A stretch of DNA of 64,000 nucleotides, taken from NCBI GenBank assembly GCA_965197645.1, contig OZ240219.1, positions 448,001-512,000 on the forward strand, in the 5' to 3' direction. Position numbers and translations under genes: made by a program. The DNA comes from Dehalococcoidia bacterium. GTDB taxonomy: Bacteria; Chloroflexota; Dehalococcoidia; Plut-88900. The notes beneath the pieces were generated by a model. It made no database searches and was not told the origin of the DNA. It saw only the letters and a list, made by a program, of their open reading frames with translations. How positions within the stretch are numbered: the stretch's first letter is position 1; each line of letters begins with the position of its first letter. Shown piece after piece: positions 4,605 through 57,080 of the stretch.

Positions 4605-5138
4605 CTAATCCTCGTTCTTTGCCGCTTCCCGGCCATTACCGTTCGTCTTGGCGCCGATGTTCTCCTCCAGCACGTCCTCGATCAGCCTGCGATGCTGCTC
4701 CTCGTCCAACGAGGCGTTTATCACCTTCTCGGCGGCGGAGATAGCCAGTCCGGCGAATTCCTGGCGTACCTTTTCGACGGCGTCGTCCCGTTCTCTCTGT
4801 ATCTCACCCCGGGCGCGAACGATCAGGGCCTCGCCTTCCTGCTGGGCCTGGTCCCTCGCCTCACCCTTGATCCGCTCCCCGATTTCTGCGGCCTCGCCGA
4901 TCAGCTTCTGGCCTTCCCTGCGGGCCTCGTCCAGGCTCTTCTTGACCTCTTCCTCGCTCTTCGCCGTCTCCTGCTGCATCTTCTCGGCGGCTTCAAGGCT
5001 CTCCTTGATCCGGCCCGAGCGCCGTTCCAGCATCCGCAGTATGGGTTTGTACAGGATGAGGCGAAGTATGATCAGCACCAACAGAACGTTTATCACCTGG
5101 ACGATGAGACCAGGCAGGTTTATTCCCAACTCACCCAC
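4605..5138 (-). CDS. atpF: ATP synthase F0 subunit b
   Basis: N-terminal TM (QVINVLLVLIIL...YKPI) followed by charged coiled coil, AISAAEKVI. Confidence 0.97.
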   Translation of the reverse strand: MGELGINLPGLIVQVINVLLVLIILRLILYKPILRMLERRSGRIKESLEAAEKMQQETAKSEEEVKKSLDEARREGQKLIGEAAEIGERIKGEARDQAQQEGEALIVRARGEIQRERDDAVEKVRQEFAGLAISAAEKVINASLDEEQHRRLIEDVLEENIGAKTNGNGREAAKNED

Positions 5139-5185
5139 TTGCCTCTCCTCTCAGCCAACATACGTCTTTCGTCATCTTTGTCCCA

Positions 5186-5479
<294 letters not shown>

Positions 5480-5494
5480 CTACGTGTTTGGTCC

Positions 5495-6715
5495 TTAGCC
5501 CTGTTCGTTCTCCGTTACGGGCTCAGGCGTCTCGTCTTCATGGGTCTCTTCACCGTGTCCATTGTGTGCCGCCATCGCTATCATCGCGAATATGAGCACC
5601 AGTATCGAGAATATAACGGCCTGGATGAAGCCGACAAATAGCTCCAGCCCGTAGAAGGGCACTACCAGCGCCAGCGGAATCAGGAAGCTCATGACGAAGA
5701 TGAGGATCTCCCCGGCGAACATGTTGCCAAAGAGACGGAAGGTGAAGCTGATCACCCTGGCGATCTCACTGACGCCTTCCAGCAGTCCCACAAAGATGTT
5801 CATCAGGCCCGTTCCGATGCCCTTTCGCAACGAGCCTATAGCAACGAACTTGCTGGCGTAGCCGAAGAAGCCCAGCGCTCGAATGCCCCAGAACTCCACC
5901 ATGACCATGCCGATAATCGCTATGGCCAGCGTCGTGTTCAACGCCGTGTTGGTGTTTCTGAAGAAGGGCACTATCAGCCCGACGTTCTTGCCTTCCTCCG
6001 GGGGATGTTCCAGGTACTCGGCCGCGGACATGGTCTGATCATGGAGGCTCAGGGGGAGGATGGAGAAGACGCTCACCTCGTCCAATAGCTGTAGCTCTTT
6101 CTCCTCCAGCTCCTCGAATATCGCCGCGCCTACGGGCAGCTCCTCCTGGTGGGCGATCCGGTCCTCGGGACTCAGGTGCACGTACTCCTCCAGCTGCTCC
6201 TCGGCCTCGTGCAGAGTGAGGTGGGGCTCGGCTTCCTCGGCCTTCTCCTCCACCACGTGCTCTATGACCACGTCCGCCGATTCGATGACTCCGACAGTGT
6301 TAAAGCCGGGGAGGAGGCTGATCCAGTTGTTGACAATGACAAAGAGGAAGATGGTGGCTACCAGCGGGAAGAATTTACGTGCGTTCTTGGGCCCGGCTAT
6401 CGCCTCTACCAGCCCGTAAAACCACCCGATGACCGCCTCGACGAAGTTCTGCCACCCGTTGGGAATCAGGCCCATCTTCCGCGTGGCAAAGAAGGCCATG
6501 AGGAGCAGGAGGGCCATGCCAACCCACGCAGAGATCATGGTGTTGGTGATGTTGAAGTCGCCCAGTGGGCCCAGGGGGAACAGATGGTGGGCTATCTTTT
6601 CGGGCTTGACGGATATCGGCGGGAAGGGAAATCTGAGGAGGGTCTGACCCAATACCAAAGAGCCCAGCGCCAAGATTACGATCGCCAGCACCTTTGGTCG
6701 GAGCAGTATGCCCAC
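5495..6715 (-). CDS. atpB: ATP synthase F0 subunit a with long acidic loop insertion
   Basis: NWISLLPG, SFTFRLFGNMFAGE, FIQAVIF; start moved to GTG at 6715 behind AAGGAG. Confidence 0.96.
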   Translation of the reverse strand: MGILLRPKVLAIVILALGSLVLGQTLLRFPFPPISVKPEKIAHHLFPLGPLGDFNITNTMISAWVGMALLLLMAFFATRKMGLIPNGWQNFVEAVIGWFYGLVEAIAGPKNARKFFPLVATIFLFVIVNNWISLLPGFNTVGVIESADVVIEHVVEEKAEEAEPHLTLHEAEEQLEEYVHLSPEDRIAHQEELPVGAAIFEELEEKELQLLDEVSVFSILPLSLHDQTMSAAEYLEHPPEEGKNVGLIVPFFRNTNTALNTTLAIAIIGMVMVEFWGIRALGFFGYASKFVAIGSLRKGIGTGLMNIFVGLLEGVSEIARVISFTFRLFGNMFAGEILIFVMSFLIPLALVVPFYGLELFVGFIQAVIFSILVLIFAMIAMAAHNGHGEETHEDETPEPVTENEQG

Positions 6716-15177: not shown

Positions 15178-17631
15178 CTACTTTGAAACAATATTCACAA
15201 GACGCCCGGGCACGTAGATAACTCTGTTCAGCGTCTTGCCGTCCAGCTGGGACTTTACCCGCTCGCTACCCAGCGCCAGCTCCTTGGCTTTCTCCTCCGT
15301 CACCTCGGCCGAGACCATAATCCGGTCTCTCACCTTCCCGTTGACCTGGATGACGAGGGTGATCTCCTCCTCCTTGGCCAGCTCCTCGTCCCAGTCGGGA
15401 AACGGCTGGTTGTGAATGCTGTAGGGGTGGCCCTTCTCTCCCCACAGCTCCTCGGCCAGATGAGGGGCCGTCGGGGCGAGAAGCGTCAGCAGAGACCCGA
15501 TGGCATTCCGCCATGTATCGGCCCCCACCGATTGCGCTTCCCACACCTTGCCCAGGTAGTTGGTCAGCTCCATCAAGCTGGCCAACATGGTGTTGAACCG
15601 GAACTGCTCCAGATCGTTGCTCACCTTCTTGATGGTGCGATGGACCACATGAAGCGTCTGCTTGACCGCCACATCATCGGTAGGGCTGCGGTCCATCTCC
15701 GCCGCGTCCAGCAACACCAGGTCCCACAACCGGTTGTACCAGCGTACTATGCCGTTGATTCCGGAGTCGCTCCACTCTCCTCCCTGGTCCCACGGCCCCA
15801 CGAACATCAGGTAGGCCCGGACCACGTCGGCGCCCAGCGTTTCCACGTACGGATCGGGGGTAATCACGTTCCCTCGTGACTTGCTCATCTTCTGCTTATC
15901 GGCCGCTATGACACCCTGATTGAACAGCCTGGTAAACGGCTCGTCGAAATCGACCAGCCCCATGTCCCGCAACGCCTTTATGAAGAACCGAGCGTAGAGC
16001 AGGTGCATGACGGCATGCTCGGCGCCTCCCGTGTACTGGTCCACGGGCATCCAGTGCTTCACCTTCTCGGCCTCAAAAGGACCCTGGTCGTAACCCGGCG
16101 AGGTGTACCGGATGAAGTACCAAGAGGAGCACATGAACGTGTCCATCGTGTCCGTCTCCCGGCGAGCGGGAGACTGGCACTTGGGGCAGGTGGTGTTGAC
16201 GAATCCTTCGTGGTACTTGAGAGGCGATTCCCCGGTGGGTCGGAACTCGGCGTCTTCGGGGAGCAGGACGGGCAGGTCCTCCTCGGGTACCGGCACCACG
16301 CCGCAGCCCTCGCAGTAGACCATGGGTATGGGCGCTCCCCAGTATCGCTGCCTAGATATCAGCCAGTCTCTCAGCCTGTACGAAATCGTCCGGTTGCCGA
16401 AGCCCGATTTTTCCGCTTCCTCGGCTATCGCACTCTTGCCCTCATCGCTGGTCCGGTCGTCGAACCTGCCCGAGTTGACCATGGTGCCCGGTTCAGTGTA
16501 AGCCTCTTCCAGCTCTTCGCCGCCGTACCCTTCCGGAGCGATCACCGTTTTGATGGTGAGATCGTACTTTTTGGCGAAGGCGAAGTCCCGGGTGTCGTGG
16601 GCGGGGACTCCCATCACCGCCCCGGTTCCATAGGTGAGCAGGGCATAGTCAGCGATGAAGACGGGCACACGATCGCCGTTGAGCCTGTTGACACAGTAGG
16701 CCCCGATAAAGACCCCGGTCTTCTCCTGGTCCTGGGACAGGCGCTCCACTTCCGTTGCCCTACGAGCATTCTCCACGTAGGCCTCTACGTTGGCCCTCCT
16801 GTCATCGGTGGTGAGCTTGTCCACCAGCGGGTGCTCCGGAGCAAGCACCATGAAGGTCACCCCGAAAATGGTGTCGGGGCGGGTGGTGAAAACGCGGATC
16901 TCCTTCTCCTCCAGCCCGTACTCTTCTATGCCGAAGCCTATCTCGACGCCTTCACTCCGGCCTATCCAGTTGGTCTGCATCGTCTTGATGCGTTCCGGCC
17001 ATTGGATGCCGCCGAACTCCAGCAGCTCGTCGGCGTACTTAGTGATGCGGAAGAACCACTGCTCCAGGTCCCGATGGGTAACCTCGGCGCCGCAACGCTC
17101 GCACGTGCCGTCGCCCAGCACCTGCTCGTTGGCCAGCACCGTCTTACAGCCCGGACACCAGTTGGCGGGGGCCTGGTCACGGTAGGCCAGATCATGATGG
17201 TGGAGCTGGAGGAACAGCCACTGGGTCCACTTGTAATACTCGGGGAGCGAGGTTATCGCTTCCTTGGACCAGTCGTAGATGGCGCCGATAGTCTTGAGCT
17301 GCTCGCGCATATTCTCGACGTTATCCATCGTCCACTTGTGGGGATGGATGCCGTGGCGTATCGCAGCGTTCTCGGCGGGGAGTCCAAATGCATCGAAGCC
17401 CATGGGATGGAGGACGTTGTACCCCTTCATGCGAAGGAACCGGGCGTGGGCGTCCGAGGGCGCCATCACGTACCAGTGGCCAATGTGCAGGTCCCCCGAG
17501 GTGTAGGGAAGCATGGTGAGGTCATACCACTTGGGCTTGGACGGGTCCTCGGTGACCTCGTACAGCTTGTCTTCGGCCCACCGCCGCTGCCACTTCCTCT
17601 CTATCTCCTGGGGGTTATATCTCAGCGCCAT
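15178..17631 (-). CDS. leuS: leucine--tRNA ligase
   Basis: HIGH and KMSKS motifs, FTTRPDT editing domain, DWLISRQRYWG. Confidence 0.99.
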   Translation of the reverse strand: MALRYNPQEIERKWQRRWAEDKLYEVTEDPSKPKWYDLTMLPYTSGDLHIGHWYVMAPSDAHARFLRMKGYNVLHPMGFDAFGLPAENAAIRHGIHPHKWTMDNVENMREQLKTIGAIYDWSKEAITSLPEYYKWTQWLFLQLHHHDLAYRDQAPANWCPGCKTVLANEQVLGDGTCERCGAEVTHRDLEQWFFRITKYADELLEFGGIQWPERIKTMQTNWIGRSEGVEIGFGIEEYGLEEKEIRVFTTRPDTIFGVTFMVLAPEHPLVDKLTTDDRRANVEAYVENARRATEVERLSQDQEKTGVFIGAYCVNRLNGDRVPVFIADYALLTYGTGAVMGVPAHDTRDFAFAKKYDLTIKTVIAPEGYGGEELEEAYTEPGTMVNSGRFDDRTSDEGKSAIAEEAEKSGFGNRTISYRLRDWLISRQRYWGAPIPMVYCEGCGVVPVPEEDLPVLLPEDAEFRPTGESPLKYHEGFVNTTCPKCQSPARRETDTMDTFMCSSWYFIRYTSPGYDQGPFEAEKVKHWMPVDQYTGGAEHAVMHLLYARFFIKALRDMGLVDFDEPFTRLFNQGVIAADKQKMSKSRGNVITPDPYVETLGADVVRAYLMFVGPWDQGGEWSDSGINGIVRWYNRLWDLVLLDAAEMDRSPTDDVAVKQTLHVVHRTIKKVSNDLEQFRFNTMLASLMELTNYLGKVWEAQSVGADTWRNAIGSLLTLLAPTAPHLAEELWGEKGHPYSIHNQPFPDWDEELAKEEEITLVIQVNGKVRDRIMVSAEVTEEKAKELALGSERVKSQLDGKTLNRVIYVPGRLVNIVSK

Positions 17632-36039: not shown

Positions 36040-37221
36040 CTAACGCTTCTCTCCGACCAAAAGGTGTCCCGGACCGTCACTTCTCACGAGGCTCACCCCA
36101 CTCGAGTGTTTCTTGTGCGCAGTTCTGACCCCGTAGTCACTTTTGCCCTGTACCCACATGTAAGGGAATCGTTTTGAGAGACCGAACAAGGCCTCGTGAA
36201 CGGCACGATACGGAGATTCGAGGAACCGATGCCGTAGCTCGTCAGAGAACTTATCTTCCTTCTCGGCTCCGCGATTCACGTTGTCGCTACGGAGCAGAAT
36301 CTCAAAGGCGCTGGCAAGCGATTCGGCAAAGCGAGGTTCATTCCGGAATTCCGAAAGGTCGATGCTTGGGACGCTAACCCCCAACCGGTCGAGCTCTTCC
36401 AAGAAACTGTCGGCCGCGTCCTTGCCGAAGAAATCGGCGAACTCCCGACTCTTCTCTCGCTTCGCCTTTAGGTCGTTGAGGGAAGATATGCGCCGGCGCA
36501 CGTAGTCCTGATGTTGCTTCCACAGAGGGTTGTCGTCCCAGTCAATTTCGGCTATATCAAGCCAGCTCACGTGATTCGAACGCGGGAAGCTCTTGGCGAA
36601 CTTCTCGAATTCCTTGACTGAGTTTAGCGAGTCCGCCTCCTCACTTGCTCGTTCTCTATTGAATGGAGTGAGAAACGAAATCTCCACGGAGTCGGAGTGT
36701 TTGTCCTTGAGCCCCTTACGATACTTCTCCAGCTGGCCGGGATCGACCGAACCATCGCTGGTCTTGACTTCAATCCCCAGGATCCGGCGAGCCGGATGCT
36801 CTGTTCGTATCAAGATGTCTATCCGGCCAGCAATGGCATCCTCAGCGACTTCGGCCTCAGGAAAGACCGTTGCCTGCTCAGGGGTCTCCCAATCTTGCGG
36901 TGCAGCCAGCTCCCATACGGCATTGAACAACGAGCGGTCTCCCTTCAGGCTGTACTGCAGGGCCTCAGCCAGAAATCGGGAATGGTACGGTTCGATTCTG
37001 CGACTGACTCGTCCTATGGTCTCGAATATGTTCATGGAAGCTCCTCCCCCAGGCTCCGCGGAAGTCGAGACGTTAAGCAGAGCCTGGGTTACCAGCTCCC
37101 GCAGGAACTCGATCTGGGCTGCCGTAAAGGGCAGCAACCTGTTGGACGGGGCCAGGCCCAGAGCCTTGTCCATCGCCTCGTTTACCCCAGCCTCGACATC
37201 TTCGGCCGTGATCTCGTTCAT
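36040..37221 (-). CDS. PD-(D/E)XK nuclease family protein
   Basis: NIFE...HSRFLA, GRIDILI...GIEVK, QLEKY, VSW; possible internal start at MNIFET. Confidence 0.8.
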   Translation of the reverse strand: MNEITAEDVEAGVNEAMDKALGLAPSNRLLPFTAAQIEFLRELVTQALLNVSTSAEPGGGASMNIFETIGRVSRRIEPYHSRFLAEALQYSLKGDRSLFNAVWELAAPQDWETPEQATVFPEAEVAEDAIAGRIDILIRTEHPARRILGIEVKTSDGSVDPGQLEKYRKGLKDKHSDSVEISFLTPFNRERASEEADSLNSVKEFEKFAKSFPRSNHVSWLDIAEIDWDDNPLWKQHQDYVRRRISSLNDLKAKREKSREFADFFGKDAADSFLEELDRLGVSVPSIDLSEFRNEPRFAESLASAFEILLRSDNVNRGAEKEDKFSDELRHRFLESPYRAVHEALFGLSKRFPYMWVQGKSDYGVRTAHKKHSSGVSLVRSDGPGHLLVGEKR

Positions 37222-42492: not shown

Positions 42493-43443
42493 TTAGGTCT
42501 TGGGGACCCGTTCCAGTTTCTGGAAGGTCCTCATATGCTGGGGCGGGTCTCGGTGCTTGCCCACCATATTCCAGGACACCTCTGCCACGTAGACATCGCC
42601 ATGGGAGTCGGTAGCGATGCCGTGGGGCGCTACAAACTCTCCTTCGCCCTCGCCCAGCGTTGGCTCCCCGACACGAGTCACCAGGTCTCCGCCCAGAGTG
42701 TAGACGCTCACCCGGTGCCCCACGTCGGGAGCATCCACGAAGTAGGCCTCACCCATGAGCTCGGCTATGTAGAGGTTGCCGTCCGGGGCCAGCGAGATGC
42801 CGGCCGGCTTCCAGATATCGTGCCATATGTGCTGAAGCTTCCCGTCGGTGTCGAAGACCTGGATGCGATGGTTCTCTCGGTCGGCCACGTACACGTTGTC
42901 GTCCTTGTCAACCTCGATGTTGTGGGGAATGACGAACTGGCCCGGATCGATACCCGATGATCCCCACGACATGATGTGCTCTCCCTCCGGCGAGTACTTG
43001 TGCACCCGGGAGTTTCCGTAGCCGTCCGAAACGAACAGGTCTCCCGTTCTGGAGGATACGGCCAGATGGGTAGGCTGGTTGAACTCGTCGCCGCTCCACC
43101 TTGGCGCCGGGTTGTTGGCCGAACCCAAAGTGAGAAGCAGCCTGCCATCCGGGGTGAACTTTCGGACCGTGTGGTCTCCCATATCGGCGCAGTAGATCGA
43201 GTCATCGGGGCCGGTGCTGATGCCGTGCGGGAACCCGAAGACGCCTTCACCCCAGGAATCGACCACGTTGCCGTCCCTATCGAAAACGATGACGGGATGG
43301 TCCCCTCTGGTGAACACGTAGACCCTGTCTTTGGAGTCCACCGCCACCCCGGCGCACTCCAGGAAGGACCACCCTTCCGGCAGCTTCTCCCAACCTTCGA
43401 CAGCTTTGAAGGAGACCTGGTCTGCGCTCAGTAGTGTAGTCAT
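42493..43443 (-). CDS. NHL-repeat beta-propeller (peptidyl-alpha-hydroxyglycine lyase-like) protein
   Basis: GVAVDSKDRVYV, PHG, SDGYGNSRV, VADRENHRIQVF. Confidence 0.9.
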   Translation of the reverse strand: MTTLLSADQVSFKAVEGWEKLPEGWSFLECAGVAVDSKDRVYVFTRGDHPVIVFDRDGNVVDSWGEGVFGFPHGISTGPDDSIYCADMGDHTVRKFTPDGRLLLTLGSANNPAPRWSGDEFNQPTHLAVSSRTGDLFVSDGYGNSRVHKYSPEGEHIMSWGSSGIDPGQFVIPHNIEVDKDDNVYVADRENHRIQVFDTDGKLQHIWHDIWKPAGISLAPDGNLYIAELMGEAYFVDAPDVGHRVSVYTLGGDLVTRVGEPTLGEGEGEFVAPHGIATDSHGDVYVAEVSWNMVGKHRDPPQHMRTFQKLERVPKT

Positions 43444-43572
43444 GTCTCTCTCCCCTCGCCGATACTGCGGAACGGAACGAAATGGACTGCAGGCGCTTAC
43501 TATACTTGAGAACCGGGCGACGGCGCCACAATCTCCCCTCGAAATCGCTAAGGTCTACCTAAGGTCTAGCTA

Positions 43573-43601
43573 TTGACACACTATCCGTCCCAATCTACAA
43601 T
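43573..43601 (+). promoter_or_regulatory. sigma70 promoter of ferritin-like gene pair
   Basis: TTGACA-17 bp-TACAAT. Confidence 0.75.
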
Positions 43602-43656
43602 TGCCCTACATCTAAGAATATGCTTAGGTGCTTATCCAGCAGGAAGAGGTGGCCAT

Positions 43657-44748
43657 ATGACGATGTCTACAGAGTCCACTAAACCGACTCCCAAATACGG
43701 TGAGGACTACGAGCCTGGTCTGGACTGGATGGACAAGCGGGGCGAGTGGGGCATGAAGGCCCAGCCGAGCAAGCGGGGCCTTACCATGGAGGACATCCAG
43801 ATTGGGTCCTACGGCGAGCCGCCGGAAGAGAGTATCAATCGCTCCGGTCGTCCCAGAGGCTCCGTGGCTCGAGAGGGCGGATACCGAAGCGGCAACTACT
43901 CCATCACCTCCAAGCAGGACATCTGGCTGAAGAACGCGGCCGGCCTGTACGAAGAGGCGCTTCAGAGGCAGTGGAGCTCCGCCACCGATATCCCATGGGA
44001 GACCATCAAGCCCCTGCCCGACGACGTCGAAAGGGCGGCGAGCCAGTTCAACACCTTCCTCAGCGACATCGAGTTCGTGGCGGCGGACGTACCGGGCAAA
44101 TGGGTGGCCAACTCCAGCCCCGACTTCCTGGAGCCCCGCATGTACCTCATGACCCAGATGGTCGACGAAGCGAGGCATCTCGACGTCTTCCGCAAGCGGG
44201 CCCTGGCCAACGGCGGCGGTCTGATGATGCGGACCCAGGACACCATGGTTGGAGGCGTCGTCAGCATCGACCACGCCCGGGACTTCTCGGAGATGTCGGC
44301 ACGCCTGCACGTCATCGGAGAAGGACCCGTGCTGACGATCTTCCGCATCGGGGAGCTGATCGCCTACAACGAGGCGGAGAAGCGGATGTACCGCTTGGCC
44401 GCCCAGGACGAGTCCCGTCACGTGGCCTTCGGCGTGATGCACATGCGCTACGTGGGTGAGACCCAGCCGGAGCGGCGGGAAGAGATCCACTGCTACCTGG
44501 ACGAGGGGGAGGAATTCCTGTTCGTCGGCAGCTCCACCGCAGCCGGGGCGGGCGATACCAGCACCGAGTCGATGTCCATACTGCTGGGCGGCGGTAAGGA
44601 CAAGTATGACGAGGGCTTGAACCTCCTCATGGCGATCAACCGCCGTCAGATGAAAGAGTACATCCAGCGGGTCCACTCCGCCGGGTTCTCGGAGCGCTTC
44701 TACAACGGGCGCGCCCACCCTGAAATAGCAAAGCTAGCCCAGGAATAG
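43657..44748 (+). CDS. ferritin-like diiron-carboxylate protein (complete ligand set)
   Basis: DIEF, DEARH, IGEG, DESRH; LYEEALQRQW. Confidence 0.82.
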   Translation: MTMSTESTKPTPKYGEDYEPGLDWMDKRGEWGMKAQPSKRGLTMEDIQIGSYGEPPEESINRSGRPRGSVAREGGYRSGNYSITSKQDIWLKNAAGLYEEALQRQWSSATDIPWETIKPLPDDVERAASQFNTFLSDIEFVAADVPGKWVANSSPDFLEPRMYLMTQMVDEARHLDVFRKRALANGGGLMMRTQDTMVGGVVSIDHARDFSEMSARLHVIGEGPVLTIFRIGELIAYNEAEKRMYRLAAQDESRHVAFGVMHMRYVGETQPERREEIHCYLDEGEEFLFVGSSTAAGAGDTSTESMSILLGGGKDKYDEGLNLLMAINRRQMKEYIQRVHSAGFSERFYNGRAHPEIAKLAQE

Positions 44749-44860
44749 GCCCGTCCGACACTTTCGGAAGTACTACGCCGAGCCGGCTGTGAGCCGGCTC
44801 GGCGCATACAATTAAAGAGCGCGTATCGCCTCTGTTCATCAGCCACATTGGAGATGCAGC

Positions 44861-45973
44861 ATGTCACCATCGACCCCCGATAAGTCCGGACCCAAGACAG
44901 GCACTGTAACCCGGCACCAGCGAGTGCTGAAAGAGCTTCGGGAACCAACCGAAGGGGAGCCGCTTCCGCCTCCTACCCTGGACTGGATGAACAAGAGCCT
45001 CCAGTGGGGCGTTCGGGTGAAGCCCGGCAAGAAGGGGCTCACCATGGGCTTGCTGAATGTCGGCATTTACGGAGAGATCCCTGACTTTTGGGAGGACAGG
45101 ACCCGGATGCTGCGCGGCTCCTACTCCACGGGCACATCTCCCCAGCTTCCCATCATGCTCCGCTACAAACACGAGCTATGGGCGGACAACGCCGCCGACC
45201 TGTATGAAGAGGCGATTCAACGGCGCTGGGTCCCCGCCACCGATGTTCCCTGGGCTACCCAGGAACCCCTGCCTGAAGACGTCGAGATAGCCATGTGCCA
45301 GCTCGCCACCGAGCTGTGCCAGCAGGCCAACGTGGAATCGGAGATAGTCGGTACCTGGCTCCAGCACATGTCCTACGGCTACCACGAAGTGAAGATATTC
45401 CTCGCTACAGAAGTGCTGGACGCTGCCCGGCACTTCGATGCATTTCGAAAGCGGGCCCTGTCCAACGGCGGCGGCCTGGGGCTGGAAAGCCGCGGCGAGC
45501 TCAACAGGGTCATCCTACAGAGCTTCGGGGACTGGTCCGAATGCAGCCTGTTTCTCCACGTAATGCGGGGGAGCTTCGCACTGACACTCTACCGGTTCGG
45601 CGAGGCCTTCGCCCACAACCCCGCCGAGAAAGAGATGTTCAGCCGCTGCCTGCAGGACAAGGGCCGTCACATGGCCTACGCCCTCGCCCATCTGCGCTAC
45701 GCCCTCAGCAAGAAACCGGACATGAACAGGGTCTTCAATAACATCCTGGGCATCGCCGAGTCCCAGATGGCCAGGGACCTGGAAGACCCCGTCCTCGTCG
45801 AGACGTTGGCCGTAATCATGGGCGGCGGCGTGGAGGGAGTCCGCACCGGCATGAGGAAGGCTACCCACGTGCTGGGCGATTTCGTCCGGCAGTACCTGAG
45901 CAACACCAAGTATATAGGCGTCGACCGGTCCCAGAATCTCCACTCGGACCTGGCGGCCTACCTGGAGTCTTAG
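44861..45973 (+). CDS. ferritin-like protein, degenerate diiron site (paralog of upstream gene)
   Basis: LYEEAIQRRW, FRKRALSNGGGL shared with upstream gene; DAARH and DKGRH replace the ExxH motifs. Confidence 0.8.
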   Translation: MSPSTPDKSGPKTGTVTRHQRVLKELREPTEGEPLPPPTLDWMNKSLQWGVRVKPGKKGLTMGLLNVGIYGEIPDFWEDRTRMLRGSYSTGTSPQLPIMLRYKHELWADNAADLYEEAIQRRWVPATDVPWATQEPLPEDVEIAMCQLATELCQQANVESEIVGTWLQHMSYGYHEVKIFLATEVLDAARHFDAFRKRALSNGGGLGLESRGELNRVILQSFGDWSECSLFLHVMRGSFALTLYRFGEAFAHNPAEKEMFSRCLQDKGRHMAYALAHLRYALSKKPDMNRVFNNILGIAESQMARDLEDPVLVETLAVIMGGGVEGVRTGMRKATHVLGDFVRQYLSNTKYIGVDRSQNLHSDLAAYLES

Positions 45974-46142
45974 GCCCGAATCCTTCCCTGTCGTAGCTAC
46001 CTGGATCGACCGCGCCACACACCTGGCAGCGCGTAATCTCCCTTTGACCTAGGATCTGTTCACGCTCCCGACCTCCAATGTCATCCCTGTAGATGTTAGG
46101 TAATTCGCTGACAGATTGGAGCAGGTAGCCCTAGGATGCAAA

Positions 46143-46284
46143 GGCCGTAGAAAGGGACGACGCAGCGTCCCTCACACCTGTCGTTCCGAACGGGATGAGG
46201 AACCTAAGACCACTGCCCTCCAAGACAACGTCGATTCATGGCGAGACGTCTTTAGATTCTTCGCTGGCGCTCGGAATGACAGCT
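46143..46284 (+). repeat. repeat family 3 (REP doublet-like), copy 1
   Basis: TGTCGTTCCGAACG...GAGGAACCTAAGA...TAGATTCTTCGCT...CTCGGAATGACA; inverted copy at 55330-55474. Confidence 0.88.
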
Positions 46285-46478
46285 AAGTTGCATCGGTGGC
46301 ATGGTCTTAATGTGAACAGGCCCAAGTCACCGACCATGCGGCGGCGGGCGCTGATGCGACTTCCGGCACTCCGAGGGCTCCCAGCTGGCCCTAACCTCCC
46401 GCACTCTTCGTTTTCACCTTGACAACAGGCACGCCTGAACCCAACATATCGGCCTGTCGGTAACATGGAAAAGACCGG

Positions 46479-47717
46479 ATGACAGCAAGAGACAGGCCTG
46501 CCTATGGCTGGGTAGTCCTGATCACCTTCACCTTCAATTACGGGGCGATCGTCATCGTCTTCATGGCCCTTGGCCTGCTCCTGCCCGACATCTCCGAGGA
46601 GCTGTCCCTGTCACCATCGCAACAGGGTTGGCTGGCTTCCTCTCTTCTGTTCGGCAACCTAATCTTCGAGATCCCCATCAGCTGGTTCCTTTCCCGTTTC
46701 AAGCCGTGGAGAGTAGCCAGCCTCGCCTTTCTCGGCGCCACGGCAATGGTCGCCGTCCAGGGCTGGTCGCCCACGTTCGCCGTGCTGCTGATAGCCCGGG
46801 TGGTTATGGGCCTCTTCTATCTGTCAACCCAGCCTCCCCGGACGTTGGTGATACTTCAGTGGCTGCCCCGCAAGATCGCCCTGGCCAACGGGGTCATGTT
46901 CGGGTTCCTGGCCATCCTCGAAGGGGCTGGGTTCATGATAGTTCCCCTGATCCTGGTGCTCCTCGGTGATTGGAGGATGACCCTCTACGTATGGGCCGGG
47001 GTATGCCTTACCGTCACCATAGGTTGGATGATTATCGGAGGCGACAAAGACACCTCCGAATATGAAACCAAGTTGGAGGCCCAGGAGAAGACCCCCATAG
47101 CCAGCATCTTTCGATACAAGGAACCGTGGCTGATGGGTCTGGGCATCGCCGGCACCATAAGCGGCAGAATGGCCTTCGATACCTTCTGGCCCACTTTTAC
47201 CGGAACCCAGTTCGGCACCGACGTCACCATCGCCGGTGTGGTCATAGGGTTGATTTCGATGGGCGGCGCCCCGGTTATGCTCATCACCACGCTGGTACCT
47301 GCCTTTTCCCGGCACAAGTCGGTGATCCTGATGACCGGAGGGGTGGCCCTTGCGGGTTCGTACGTCGGCACCCTCTTCACTGGCTCGACACTACTGCTGC
47401 TTCTGCTGGGATTGGTCAATGGCTTCGGTTTCGGTTTCTTCCCCCTGATGATTGCTTCTCTTTACAACCTTCCGGGAATAAAACCCAGAGAGGTAGCCGT
47501 TGCGGTGGCCCTGGTGTACACGCTAATGTGGGGAGGCGCCGCCCTGGGGCCTCTCATCGCTGGGTTCGTCCAGGAGGCCACCGACGATCTCAGGCTGGCC
47601 CTGTTCATAACTTCGTTGGCCCCTCTGCTGCTCACAGTATCCGCCTTTACGCTGGCGGCCGGCAAGAAGAGGGAGCTGCCAAGTCCTGGTCCCCTTCCCG
47701 CCACAAGTTCTCACTAG
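46479..47717 (+). CDS. MFS transporter
   Basis: About 12 hydrophobic segments in two halves, MFS length and layout. Confidence 0.88.
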   Translation: MTARDRPAYGWVVLITFTFNYGAIVIVFMALGLLLPDISEELSLSPSQQGWLASSLLFGNLIFEIPISWFLSRFKPWRVASLAFLGATAMVAVQGWSPTFAVLLIARVVMGLFYLSTQPPRTLVILQWLPRKIALANGVMFGFLAILEGAGFMIVPLILVLLGDWRMTLYVWAGVCLTVTIGWMIIGGDKDTSEYETKLEAQEKTPIASIFRYKEPWLMGLGIAGTISGRMAFDTFWPTFTGTQFGTDVTIAGVVIGLISMGGAPVMLITTLVPAFSRHKSVILMTGGVALAGSYVGTLFTGSTLLLLLLGLVNGFGFGFFPLMIASLYNLPGIKPREVAVAVALVYTLMWGGAALGPLIAGFVQEATDDLRLALFITSLAPLLLTVSAFTLAAGKKRELPSPGPLPATSSH

Positions 47718-50492: not shown

Positions 50493-50536
50493 GGCATCCG
50501 AATTCTATCATCGGCCCGCCGTACAGGAGGTTGTCC

Positions 50537-52948
50537 ATGGCTCCTCTCATCTGCGAAGGCCTTCGAGTCCTAGACCTATCCATAAGCATGTCCGGTGCAC
50601 TGCCGACGATGATCATGTCCGACGCCGGCGCGGAAGTCATCAAGATCGAGCCGCCCGAAGGCGACCCAACGCGCAAGCATTACGCTCATCCCATGTGGCA
50701 CCGGGGCAAGAAGAGCGTTGTGCTGGACCTCAAGACCCGGGAAGGCCAGGGCCATCTTCACGATCTCGCCCGCCACAGCGACGTGCTGCTCACCACCTTC
50801 CGACCCGGCGTAGCCGAGCGGCTGGGAGCGGGATATGAGACCATCAAAGAGGTCAATCCGTCCCTGGTATACACCGCCATCTCCGGCTTCGGTCCTGTCG
50901 ATGAGTACAAGGAGATCAAGGCATACGACGGGATCGTGGCCGCTCTATCCGGCCGGGTCCACACTTTCGATCCCCAGACGGACAAGGATGGTCCCATCTT
51001 CTCAGCCCTTCCCGTGGCCAGCTTCGGAGCGGGCATGTACGCCCTACAGGGCACCATGGCCGCGCTGTACGTGAGGGAGAGGACCGGCCGGGGTCAGAAA
51101 GTGGAGACCAGCCTGCTGCAGGCCCTGGGCGCTTACGACTGGATGTCGCTGACCTGGCAACTGCGGCAACGGGGTGAAGACCCATTCAAGGGCCTTCCCA
51201 TGGAAGAGCCCAGCCCCCAGTACTTCGTCGCGCCGACCAAAGACGGCAAGTGGATCCAGATGGCCAACGCCATGGATCACCTTTTCATCAACTGGCTGGT
51301 GGGCATCGGCCTGGGAGGACTACTGGACGACCCCAGGTTCATCGAGCTTCCCCAGGTCGTCACTGGAGAGGCCAACGAAGAGCTCTACCGTCTGATGTTT
51401 TCCAGGATGGCCGAGAAGACACTGGACGAATGGATGCACCTGTTCATGACGGAGGTCGACACCGCATCCGAGCCCTTCCTTCATACTCAACAGGGTCTGA
51501 GTCATCCCCAGGTCCTGCATAACGGCAGCACTGTGAGGCTGTACGACGACCGGGTCGGCGAGACCTTGCAGCTCGGTCCCGTGGCCAAATTCACCGAGAC
51601 TCCCCTCCAACCCCACGGCCCCGCACCGAGCCTGGGCCAGCACACCGCCGAGGTGATCGCCCAATCGAGAAACGGGCACGGATCGAGCTCGCGCTCCGGC
51701 AACGGCCGGATGCCGGGAGCCCCGCTGGAGGGAGTCACCCTGGTGGAGTTCGCCAGCTGGTTTGCCGTTCCCTTCGCACCGGCCATTCTGGCCGACCTGG
51801 GCGCGAGGGTCATCAAGGTAGAACCTACCGGCGGAGACCCCTGGCGCGGTTTTGGGCCGATGGGCTACCGCACACTCCAGGGCAAAGAGGCCGTCGCCAT
51901 AGACCTGCGCACCGAGAAGGGTCAAGAGATCGGCGCCGAGCTGATGGCCGAAGCGGACCTGATAGTGCACAATCTCCGGCCGGGAGTGCCCCAGAAGCTG
52001 GGCATAGACTACGAAAGCGCGAAACAGGTCAACCCGTCGGTCATCTACCTGTATGGTGGCGGATACGGCTCTACCGGGCCCTATTCCCATCGGCCCGCTA
52101 TGCACCCCGTCCCAGGCGCCGTGTGCGGAGGTGCCATGTACCAGGCCGGACGGGGCATGCCCCCTCCTCCTGACGCCGACCTGAGCTACGAGGAAGTACG
52201 AAAGGTCGCTCGGTGGCTTGGTGCTGCAAATGAGGGCAACCCGGACGTCAGCTCCTCCATGGTCAACGCCTCGACTCTCCTCATGGCCCTCTACGCCCGG
52301 GAGAAGACCGGCCTCGGCCAGTACATCGAGACTTCGATGCTCTGCTCCAACCTCTACGCCAACTCCGACGACGCTCTGCAGTACGAGGGTAAGCCGGAGC
52401 GTCTTCTGCCCGACCCCGATCTGAACGGCCTGCATGCCCTGTACCGCTTCTACAAGGCCAAAGACGAATGGGTCTTCCTGGCTTGCACCACCGACGTCGA
52501 GTGGGAACACCTGTGCACAGCCATCGACCGCGGTGCCCTGGCAACCGATCCCCGTTTTCTCACCGAATCGAACCGCTTGGACCATGAACTCGAGCTCGCC
52601 GACCTGCTAGAGCCCATCTTCGCCCAGCGTACTGCGGGAGAGTGGCAAGAGTACCTGACCCGGCGGAACGTAGCCTGTGTGGAGGTGTTCCCCGCCGATA
52701 TCTGCGAGTTCGCCAACACCAGCCCCCTGATGTGGAAGTACGGGCTGTCCGTAGAGCGGGAACATCCCTCCTTCGGCAAGTTCATGAGGTATGGCCGGGT
52801 AGTGGATTTCTCGAAGACGTCGGCAACCACCTTCGGACCCTTCACGTTCATCGGGGAGCACACCGGGCCAGTGCTGAAGGAGCTGGGCTACACCGATGAT
52901 CATGTACGAGAGTTGGAAGAGCAGAAGATCGTAGTCTGCCACCGCTAA
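50537..52948 (+). CDS. fused two-domain CaiB/BaiF CoA-transferase
   Basis: Two successive class III CoA-transferase units (EGLRVLD...GAEVIKIE; PLEGVTLVE...GARVIKVE). Confidence 0.92.
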   Translation: MAPLICEGLRVLDLSISMSGALPTMIMSDAGAEVIKIEPPEGDPTRKHYAHPMWHRGKKSVVLDLKTREGQGHLHDLARHSDVLLTTFRPGVAERLGAGYETIKEVNPSLVYTAISGFGPVDEYKEIKAYDGIVAALSGRVHTFDPQTDKDGPIFSALPVASFGAGMYALQGTMAALYVRERTGRGQKVETSLLQALGAYDWMSLTWQLRQRGEDPFKGLPMEEPSPQYFVAPTKDGKWIQMANAMDHLFINWLVGIGLGGLLDDPRFIELPQVVTGEANEELYRLMFSRMAEKTLDEWMHLFMTEVDTASEPFLHTQQGLSHPQVLHNGSTVRLYDDRVGETLQLGPVAKFTETPLQPHGPAPSLGQHTAEVIAQSRNGHGSSSRSGNGRMPGAPLEGVTLVEFASWFAVPFAPAILADLGARVIKVEPTGGDPWRGFGPMGYRTLQGKEAVAIDLRTEKGQEIGAELMAEADLIVHNLRPGVPQKLGIDYESAKQVNPSVIYLYGGGYGSTGPYSHRPAMHPVPGAVCGGAMYQAGRGMPPPPDADLSYEEVRKVARWLGAANEGNPDVSSSMVNASTLLMALYAREKTGLGQYIETSMLCSNLYANSDDALQYEGKPERLLPDPDLNGLHALYRFYKAKDEWVFLACTTDVEWEHLCTAIDRGALATDPRFLTESNRLDHELELADLLEPIFAQRTAGEWQEYLTRRNVACVEVFPADICEFANTSPLMWKYGLSVEREHPSFGKFMRYGRVVDFSKTSATTFGPFTFIGEHTGPVLKELGYTDDHVRELEEQKIVVCHR

Positions 52949-55544: not shown

Positions 55545-57080
55545 CTAGGGGTGAATCGTGATGGGTTGGGCAACTATCCACAGGCTGACGACTGTGTACC
55601 CCACCATGAGCACCAGCATCGGGTACTGGCTCCTCAGTGTCCGCGCCCTCGTTCTCATCGTCCGTACGGCTATCAGGTGGGACAGGTAGACGGCAACTAT
55701 GTGCCCGACCACGATGGCGCCCACTCCCACGAACCATACCGCTCGGGCGTTGATAATCGAGATGTTGGGACGATGGTCGACCGTACCGAACAGGTCCCAA
55801 TCCCATCCAAAAGGATTGGAGAGCAGCGGGACGATCAGCTGTCCGGATAACACGATGAAGGAGAAGAAGTGGGCCAGATTGTAGGCGATGGCTATAGGTA
55901 TAAGCGAGTAGACGAAAGTCCGAGCTACCCGCCCGGTCGTCCACTCACCCCCCACCAATCTCGATATTACGTGCGAGATGAGCAGGAATGCGGCCACAAA
56001 CAGGCATGGGAAGGCCAGCAGACCCAACGTCATCCCCAGGCTGTTCTCGTAGAAGGTCTGGGTCGGCAGCACCCGGTCCAGGATATCGACCCACAAAGGG
56101 GTCTCCTGAAACCCATCGAAGGTGACCAGCGATAGCGCCAAGACCACCAGTACCACTTCCGAGGTGTGGACCCGCTCCGAAACGGCCAGCCCAACAGCCG
56201 GCGGCCTGAGGTTCAGCTCCCTGTTCCTTCCCGCTTTCTCATAGCATTCGTAACAGTCTATGCACTCCCCGTCCTCGGCACCGCAGGCCCTGGAGCAGTG
56301 CCGGCACAGCTCTCCGTTGGCCACCCTCACTTCGCTGGGGGAGAACTTGCTGATGAACCTGTAGAGTACTGAGAAGGCTTCACCGTAGTGAAGCCAGGCG
56401 TGCCGTCCATAGACGAACATTCCTACCCAGGTAATGGCCGTGTAGACGATCACCATGGCCCCCACGTGCCTGGGGGTGATGGCCTCAACGTATACGTTCT
56501 CGATCCAGGAAAAAGCGAAGAGCAGGACTATCGCCGACGTGACCCCGATCTCGGCAGGGTAGGACTTTCCCAGTCCGAACCGTCTTCCGGACGTGAGGAC
56601 GGCGTACAGCTTCTCGGCCCATCGAAAGGCGACAGCCCAGGGGTTCAGGAATGCCCAGAAGTTACCCACGAAAGCGACCACGAACCCAAAACCCACCCAC
56701 CAGATCACCCAGATGAAGACCACCGAGAAGTTCAGCAGCGGCGCTCGGCTCCCCCAGAACGCGGTAGCGACCACCAGGCCCAGAAGCGCCACGGACGCGG
56801 CTTGCAGCAGATTGACCAGTACGGGATGGCCAATCCACGGCCTGATGAGTCTGTTCGCCAGCAGGTTGTATCTTGGATAGTCTCCCCGGTCCGAGCTCGT
56901 CCTCAGAAACCAGCCGACGACGACAAAGGACAGGAGTACGGTGGCCCCGGCCCCGTACAGATAGAGCCACAGGGGCACGGGTAGATCGTACCGCTCGCCA
57001 AAGCCGTGGGCAGCCGCCGCTCCGGTGGCCAGAGGCAGGGAGAGGACGGCCGACAGGACAACGAGGAAGAATCGTCTCAT
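55545..57080 (-). CDS. polytopic membrane protein with Cys cluster (fenitrothion-hydrolase-neighbour-like family)
   Basis: Signal ending AHG, DLPVPLWLY, LNPW, SLIPIAIAYNLAH, LSNPFGW, SQYPMLVLMVGYT. Confidence 0.75.
   Translation of the reverse strand: MRRFFLVVLSAVLSLPLATGAAAAHGFGERYDLPVPLWLYLYGAGATVLLSFVVVGWFLRTSSDRGDYPRYNLLANRLIRPWIGHPVLVNLLQAASVALLGLVVATAFWGSRAPLLNFSVVFIWVIWWVGFGFVVAFVGNFWAFLNPWAVAFRWAEKLYAVLTSGRRFGLGKSYPAEIGVTSAIVLLFAFSWIENVYVEAITPRHVGAMVIVYTAITWVGMFVYGRHAWLHYGEAFSVLYRFISKFSPSEVRVANGELCRHCSRACGAEDGECIDCYECYEKAGRNRELNLRPPAVGLAVSERVHTSEVVLVVLALSLVTFDGFQETPLWVDILDRVLPTQTFYENSLGMTLGLLAFPCLFVAAFLLISHVISRLVGGEWTTGRVARTFVYSLIPIAIAYNLAHFFSFIVLSGQLIVPLLSNPFGWDWDLFGTVDHRPNISIINARAVWFVGVGAIVVGHIVAVYLSHLIAVRTMRTRARTLRSQYPMLVLMVGYTVVSLWIVAQPITIHP

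Follow-up and report, generated by a model that had tools for sequence, protein, structure and literature searches.

Two adjacent genes, termed A and B here, were analysed on a 64,000-nucleotide stretch of DNA (the window) from the genome of an uncultured, sponge-associated Dehalococcoidia bacterium (NCBI GenBank assembly GCA_965197645.1, contig OZ240219.1, positions 448,001 to 512,000 of the forward strand). The window has a GC content of about 60% and is part of a single 3.21-Mb contig (genome G000). The features of the locus are listed in Table 1 together with further copies of both genes in the same genome. The ATG of gene A at 43657 is preceded by the purine-rich ribosome-binding site GGAAGAGG, and GGAG is found six bases 5' of the ATG of gene B. 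A longer open reading frame (ORF) of A starts with TTG at 43573; judged from the sequence, the real start is unlikely to lie there because the same TTG belongs to the -35 hexamer of the promoter-like site. Promoter-like sites were seen twice in the scanned region, compared with 0.7 expected. The spacer between A and B contains an inverted repeat, which could be an RNA-stability or processing element setting the ratio of A to B. A terminator scan of 43300-46600 gave no terminator-like sites, and there were no Rfam matches in the same region at E up to 1.

Table 1. Features of the A-B locus and further A and B copies in the same genome (window positions, except where the prefix C1 is given)
Feature	Position	Strand	Remarks
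Promoter-like site TTGACA-17-TACAAT	43573-43601	+	upstream of A; consensus match only, 11/12 positions
Gene A, R2-like ferritin-fold protein with full two-metal ligand set	43657-44748	+	363 amino acids (aa)
Perfect 11-bp inverted repeat with 5-nt loop	44777-44803	+	inside the 112-nt A-B spacer; no T-run after it
Gene B, A paralogue with replaced metal ligands, predicted non-catalytic partner subunit	44861-45973	+	370 aa
Major facilitator superfamily (MFS) transporter (PF07690)	46479-47717	+	downstream of B, only loosely associated
Second A-B pair	C1:2586282-2588501		
Solo A copy	C1:2941431-2942501		
Solo A copy	C1:2946014-2947084		

An earlier note, made from the DNA letters of the locus, had described A and B as co-oriented paralogues sharing three motifs, of which the first keeps and the second has lost the ligands of a two-metal site. 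All three motifs were found in both translations, and in BLASTP 116 of 325 residues are identical (36%, E 2e-67). The alignment places the ligands of A at E139, E171, H174, E222, E252 and H255 (E/ExxH/E/ExxH, in the segments DIEF, DEARH, IGEG and DESRH), while the same six columns of B hold A, A, H, G, K and H (A/AxxH/G/KxxH, in QQAN, DAARH, MRGS and DKGRH), exactly as the note had read them. The pattern was then followed in an alignment of 64 sequences, consisting of A, B and 62 representatives of at least 320 aa from among 150 of the 572 clusters (at 50% identity) that a search with B returned. The full EEHEEH set is present in 25 of the 64 and is replaced by varied substitutions in the other 39. 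Across 35 A-type sequences there is no variation at the six ligands or at E159, R173, F178, D251, R254 and G343, whereas 25 B-type sequences have their own, different set of invariant residues with no ligand carboxylate in it. In the close B-types (n = 7), D-K-x-R-H stands in place of the D-E-x-R-H of A, and D266, K267, R269 and H270 are invariant. Retention of the ligands by homologues of B, which the earlier note had named as an argument against an active/inactive pair, was therefore not what was found.

Proteins of the A family are widespread. A search with A gave 1730 proteins from metagenome-assembled genomes (MAGs) of Dehalococcoidia and Pseudomonadales, of which those with a name are listed as 'hypothetical' or as 'ferritin-like domain-containing protein'; the family is present in 20 of 41 genomes of the class. 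Gene neighbourhoods were compared at 80 loci, the best 80 of 488 relatives retrieved with an alignment of 7 close B sequences. Most of these are labelled Dehalococcoidia, Chloroflexota or SAR202. Eleven come from Gammaproteobacteria, a number that includes a locus named simply 'Proteobacteria' and a bin under the name Klebsiella, both of which are counted here with the rest; the Klebsiella bin clusters with them. Gene A lies upstream of B on the same strand at 79 of the 80 loci, in Chloroflexota and Gammaproteobacteria alike; at the sole exception (L069), B is only 122 bases from the contig end. Thus B does not occur alone in these B-centred loci, another finding that the earlier note would have counted against a pair. 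The possibility that B is a decaying pseudogene was considered and rejected because its identity is kept at 54-66% across the 80 loci and across phyla; its frame is intact, and it has invariant residues of its own.

A FastTree phylogeny of 164 sequences (83 A rows and 81 B rows) separated all A from all B sequences at a branch with 100% support, and this topology indicates that the split between them goes back to a single old duplication. Window A and window B both group with the copies from the same three loci, L048, L062 and L063 (99% support). The gammaproteobacterial B sequences (L073, L077, L078, L082, L084, L086 and L088-L092) form one clade (99%), and because this clade is nested among the Chloroflexota sequences, the tree suggests that the whole five-gene unit described below was transferred between the phyla. 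One of the contigs in this clade, L077, belongs to a MAG whose bin label, Klebsiella pneumoniae, is probably wrong; its cassette clusters with copies from marine Gammaproteobacteria.

Family searches gave little. Neither A nor B has a Pfam match at E up to 1, and the only family hits were those to the R2lox models of NCBIfam (NF006198-NF006202), where A reached 35.6 bits with the best model, NF006200, against a cut-off of 194, and B reached 17 bits. A model of A was produced with AlphaFold (AF2) from 35 sequences, with a predicted local distance difference test (pLDDT) value of 88.1 and a predicted template modelling (pTM) score of 0.86. The top Foldseek hits of this model were R2lox (E 6e-5), the R2 subunit of ribonucleotide reductase (RNR), VlmB and the soluble methane monooxygenase hydroxylase, with E values from 6e-5 to 1e-3. 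Profile comparison gave E 1e-11 for the VlmB-type structures 6d9f and 8wvr, over positions 139-291 only, and E 9e-8 for the Geobacillus kaustophilus R2lox, 4hr0. In an exhaustive structural search ranked by VIA-align Z scores, with the A model as query, the VlmB homologue 6d9f came out at Z 23.2 (root-mean-square deviation (rmsd) 2.8 over 256 residues, 20% identity), followed by R2lox 4hr0 (Z 21.4), RNR R2 chains (Z 19-21), aldehyde-deformylating oxygenases (Z 19-20), the beta subunits 2inn_C, 1mhy_B and 1t0q_B of multicomponent monooxygenases (Z 18.3-18.7), PaaC 3pvr_B (Z 16.0), BoxB (Z 15.3), CmlI (Z 13.6) and AurF 2jcd (Z 13.3). For AurF (PF11583) there was no Pfam hit of A at E up to 1, and a single Atlas neighbour cluster carries PF11583 on 50% of its members. 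Since R2-like structures and profile matches outrank the folds of PaaC and of the monooxygenases, we place A in the R2-like branch of the ferritin superfamily, of which it is a distant member, rather than among proteins of the PaaA or monooxygenase type. The earlier note had likened the pair to PaaA/PaaC and to the alpha and beta subunits of bacterial multicomponent monooxygenases (BMMs); the pairing of a catalytic with a structural subunit is supported, but the fold has its closer counterparts in VlmB, R2lox and RNR R2. Chains of ferritin, Dps and bacterioferritin were matched as well, in the four-helix core (Z 10-11 over only about 140 residues). On these matches one could propose that the pair stores or detoxifies iron or peroxide in the manner of ferritin, Dps or rubrerythrin. 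They are, however, far weaker than the R2-like ones at Z 21-23, and a ligand-less partner, the SCP2 proteins described below and an 85-residue arm predicted to wrap a partner are misfits in a cage-forming storage protein, which makes this proposal extremely improbable.

The pairing of A and B was assessed by complex prediction. The prediction for A with B scored 0.94 and the best of 3 controls 0.00; of 157 solved complexes 116 attained that mark, as did 2 of 215 mismatched pairs, counts that are only rough, own alignments having been supplied. Three runs agreed in at least 83% of contacts, with a pLDDT of at least 88 for the partner. The prediction gives a large interface of 351-370 confident contacts, made by the N-terminal arms (residues 10-80 of A) and by the helices carrying E139 and E171/H174, the arm of A, about 85 residues long, being modelled as wrapped around the partner. 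A heterocomplex, the failure of which would have spoken against the earlier note, is therefore predicted. Its score may nevertheless reflect likeness to solved dimers of the R2 type, and A-B cannot be separated from A-A by the predictor because close cousins of a true partner also pass.

This last point is one of those that would fit with A and B not pairing at all, A being a homodimeric enzyme like R2lox or VlmB and B having a separate, non-catalytic role in ligand binding or regulation. The genome holds four A-type genes, all with intact ligands, and two B-types, so that two A copies stand without an adjacent partner; moreover, R2lox and RNR R2, which are among the nearest folds, are homodimers. 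On the other hand, the solo copies are recent in-genome duplicates of window A (79% and 87% identity, clade support 97%), and 10 of the 11 other genomes of the same family hold exactly one A with one adjacent B. Together with the position of A directly upstream of B at 79 of the 80 loci, the agreement of the A and B trees for the sub-lineage of the window and the size of the predicted interface, this leaves a non-pairing A and B rather unlikely. The surroundings of the solo copies (L013, C1:2934000-2953000) encode a luciferase-like monooxygenase, an amidohydrolase_2 protein, a short-chain dehydrogenase/reductase (SDR), a Rieske protein and a glyoxalase. The same locus also carries a phage-type integrase (15973-17304) and a DNA methylase (4957-5871), and may be a genomic island.

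The earlier note had noticed that no reductase, ferredoxin, coupling protein or paaB/D/E gene is adjacent to the pair and had suggested a distinct, uncharacterised family of two-subunit enzymes. Among the 31 ORFs scanned in the window (27.5-63 kb), no member of these families was indeed found, nor was an R1-type gene of RNR or anything resembling a natural-product cluster around A-B. The relatives, however, carry conserved further genes, which were detected by clustering all ORFs of the 80 loci, the presence of the first two being counted by tblastn. Two small paralogous genes, C (about 145 aa) and D (about 138 aa), follow directly after B, C at 74 and D at 70 of the 80 loci, and a gene E of about 95 aa comes after D at 69. 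Apart from A to E and frames overlapping them, no gene cluster occurs at more than 16 of the 80 loci, and the recurrent clusters include no reductase, ferredoxin or coupling protein. The model of C (AF2, pLDDT 92.1) has as its best Foldseek hit the SCP2 protein 2cx7 (E 7e-5, TMt 0.73, rmsd 2.8), and the SCP2 domain of UbiJ (6h6n, 6h6o) is also among its fold matches. The assignment to SCP2 is by fold only, as neither C nor D has a Pfam match at E up to 0.01 and the best SCP2 sequence hit is at E 0.35. E matches Zn_ribbon_8 (E 5e-13), keeps four cysteines in 69-70 of 70 sequences and has a conserved motif resembling LDPKYDKMVD. The family is uncharacterised, as the note had suggested, but the two-subunit part of the claim is probably wrong: the system probably has more than two subunits, its unit in the relatives being the five genes A-B-C-D-E. 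At two of the loci that lack the rest of the cassette (L062:5817-8642 and L076:5930-8176), a gene upstream of A and divergent from it encodes a molybdenum enzyme of the xanthine-dehydrogenase/aldehyde-oxidase type, which the window lacks.

These partners also bear on the possibility that A and B form a radical-generating subunit of the R2 type, which would serve a partner enzyme and have no small-molecule substrate itself. RNR R2 chains do rank high among the structural matches of A, and in yeast R2 is a heterodimer of Rnr2 and Rnr4 (PMC4245953). Neither A nor B, however, matches the R2 family or any other Pfam family at E up to 1, and the scanned ORFs of the window hold no R1-type gene to be served. 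In addition, the residue at what we take to be the position of the radical tyrosine of R2 is an invariant phenylalanine, F178. The conservation of SCP2-fold partners, moreover, indicates a lipid-like small molecule, and we regard a role as an R2-type subunit as very unlikely.

The explanation that we consider probable is that A and B are the core of a five-gene unit encoding an uncharacterised, heterodimeric, R2-like two-metal oxidase that acts on a greasy substrate. A and B would form an obligate heterodimer of R2-like ferritin-fold subunits, in which A would hold a carboxylate-bridged two-metal site (Fe/Fe or Mn/Fe) activating O2, and B, having lost its site after the single old duplication, would be the structural half. 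The SCP2-fold proteins C and D would probably carry or present the hydrophobic substrate, and E may either donate electrons like a rubredoxin or have a structural function. On this reading the enzyme would oxidise a greasy molecule, which it would hydroxylate, desaturate or epoxidise.

Besides the limits of the complex prediction given above, several points weigh against this explanation. C, D and E are not adjacent to A-B in the window, nor in its closest relatives L048, L062, L063 and L076, which are those nearest in the B tree with enough downstream sequence to judge. The sole C-D pair of this genome, with E directly after it, is found at C1:2618976-2619876, 2.1 Mb from the A-B pair of the window, and in the sister genus (G003-G011) C and D are hundreds of kb apart from each other. 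Because C, D and E lie apart from A-B here and in the closest relatives, it has to be assumed that they act on A/B in trans. With no partner next to the solo A copies, A may function as a homodimer as well, or several A proteins may use one B. The lack of a reductase or ferredoxin near the pair is a further point of this kind. Finally, it is from paralogy, ligand pattern, fold and gene linkage that we infer the heterodimer, the binding and identity of the metals, the O2 chemistry, the roles of C, D and E and the class of substrate. As to the gene layout itself, the genomes G003-G011 are complete or near-complete and have A-B, C, D and an epoxide hydrolase at separate places, hundreds of kb from each other; the cassette is fully fragmented in the family of this genome and compact elsewhere.

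The surroundings of the distant C-D-E set give a lead to the chemistry. The set is immediately preceded by the genes for an MFS transporter and for an epoxide hydrolase of the EHN type (PF06441), all on the same strand, and this hydrolase gene is present as a single copy in the 3.2-Mb genome. Its orthologue (60% identity) is located within 10 kb of the cassette at 12 of the 80 loci, and in 10 of these 12 the epoxide hydrolase-MFS pair is divergent from A. A strong EHN match is present in 14 of the 41 genomes of the class, all of them among the 20 with the A family and none among the 21 without it. Against this stands the finding that 11 of the 12 EHN-linked loci belong to one clade of 18 rows and that the epoxide hydrolase is far from A-B and from C in the family-level relatives, and the co-occurrence of EHN and A may only reflect large, oxidase-rich genomes. 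Epoxidation as the chemistry of A/B is a weak lead and not a finding. In a more far-reaching version, A/B with C/D and E would represent a new class of soluble two-metal oxygenases, in which a lipid-, terpenoid- or sterol-like substrate is imported by the MFS protein, delivered by the SCP2 pair and epoxidised or hydroxylated with electrons from E, the linked hydrolase opening the epoxide. This version we regard as conceivable but doubtful.

Some indication of expression came from a single study with four RNA libraries, annotated as sponge metagenome, in which 37-47% of sampled words of the stretch were found. Contigs of sponge RNA libraries cover parts of A and B at an identity of at least 95%, which is consistent with transcription of both genes; such contigs can, however, include carry-over of DNA. 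None of them spans the whole stretch or the A-B spacer, and the spacer upstream of A and most of the region after B are uncovered, so that they are uninformative on operon structure.

The other genes of the window were not found to be partners of A and B. The flanking genes (NHL, SDR, O-methyltransferase, GT2 and CoA-transferase) are not conserved as such across the 80 loci. The gap of 505 nt between B and the MFS gene (45974-46478) has no ORF of at least 80 aa and no Rfam match, and contains a promoter-like site at 46108-46137. The MFS transporter downstream of B is of a different type from the one adjoining the epoxide hydrolase; in the three closest relatives (L048, L062 and L063) its homologues, with 52% identity, are encoded on the opposite strand, 4-5 kb upstream of A. 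An ORF of 805 aa at 50531-52948 contains two tandem family III CoA-transferase domains (E 1e-153) and is a fused double enzyme. For two minus-strand ORFs, at 36040-37221 (393 aa) and 55545-57080 (511 aa), Pfam gave nothing at E up to 1e-5; the GC content at third codon positions (GC3) is coding-like in the 511-aa ORF, and the 393-aa ORF failed the GC3 filter.

Some of the most versatile enzymes known to activate O2 are ferritin-fold proteins of the R2-like kind. The present family is large, has no Pfam model and is found in abundant uncultured marine lineages, the SAR202-type Dehalococcoidia and marine Pseudomonadales. If A/B oxidises greasy or recalcitrant compounds, this would bear on the degradation of refractory dissolved organic matter by these bacteria, and the pair could provide a compact new oxygenase scaffold. 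If the reading as a new oxygenase class were true, marine and sponge-associated bacteria of the SAR202 type would gain a route into recalcitrant greasy organic matter. No published work on this family was found in literature searches for SAR202 ferritin-like proteins and for R2-like or diiron proteins with SCP2, and none of the matches listed for VlmB and diiron heterodimers deals with it. New here are the split layout, the solo A duplicates, the link to an epoxide hydrolase and an MFS transporter, and the nested gammaproteobacterial clade. We know of no characterised diiron system that combines a ligand-less paralogue, two SCP2 carriers and a four-cysteine protein.

The comparison with known systems begins with VlmB, the best match of A by both profile and structure. 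The review PMC13755311 describes VlmB as a non-heme diiron enzyme whose oxygen comes from O2. A shares the E/ExxH/E/ExxH site of the VlmB azoxy synthase (8wvr) and of its Kitasatospora homologue (6d9f); unlike VlmB, it is accompanied by a ligand-less paralogue and by SCP2 and zinc-ribbon proteins, and its N-terminal arm extends over about 85 residues. R2lox (G. kaustophilus 4hr0 and M. tuberculosis 3ee4) has the same six ligands as A and a matching fold. It differs from A in that A is far below the NCBIfam cut-off and is predicted to form a heterodimer with an inactive subunit. R2lox has a Tyr-Val ether cross-link beside its metal site. The column of the cross-link tyrosine (residue 162 in the 6f6l chain) corresponds to Leu217 in A, by hidden Markov model (HMM) alignment only; in the A family positions 140-141 are variable and A142 is nearly invariant. 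R2lox also binds a fatty-acid-like ligand, and a ligand of this kind would suit the SCP2 partners.

Yeast Rnr2-Rnr4 is likewise a heterodimer of the R2 fold made of an active subunit and a paralogue. Rnr4 is without iron ligands and helps in cofactor assembly. In contrast to the yeast pair, A-B has no R1 partner in the scanned ORFs, F178 in place of the tyrosine and no match to the Pfam R2 family; A-B is an independent duplication in bacteria. With PaaA-PaaC and with the alpha and beta subunits of BMMs, A-B has a common logic, a catalytic diiron subunit combined with a related subunit lacking the site. However, the fold scores of these systems against A are below those of the R2-like group, A-B has no Pfam match, and A has 363 aa compared with about 490-510 aa for the monooxygenase alpha chains in the structural listing. 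Since neither membership in the Pfam families nor, among the scanned ORFs of the window, the partner genes of these systems were found, and since the radical tyrosine of R2 is absent, the A-B pair is outside the RNR R2, PaaA/PaaC and BMM families. A last parallel concerns the way in which the substrate may be presented. In the ubiquinone pathway, SCP2 or lipid-binding proteins, UbiJ and Coq9 (the latter with Coq7), hand a greasy substrate to quinone hydroxylases. C shares the fold of the UbiJ SCP2 domain and no sequence relation beyond the fold. Unlike UbiJ and Coq9-Coq7, the present system has two paralogous SCP2 proteins and an R2-like oxygenase, and by analogy with that pathway, C and D may present their substrate to A-B as UbiJ and Coq9 do to the hydroxylases.

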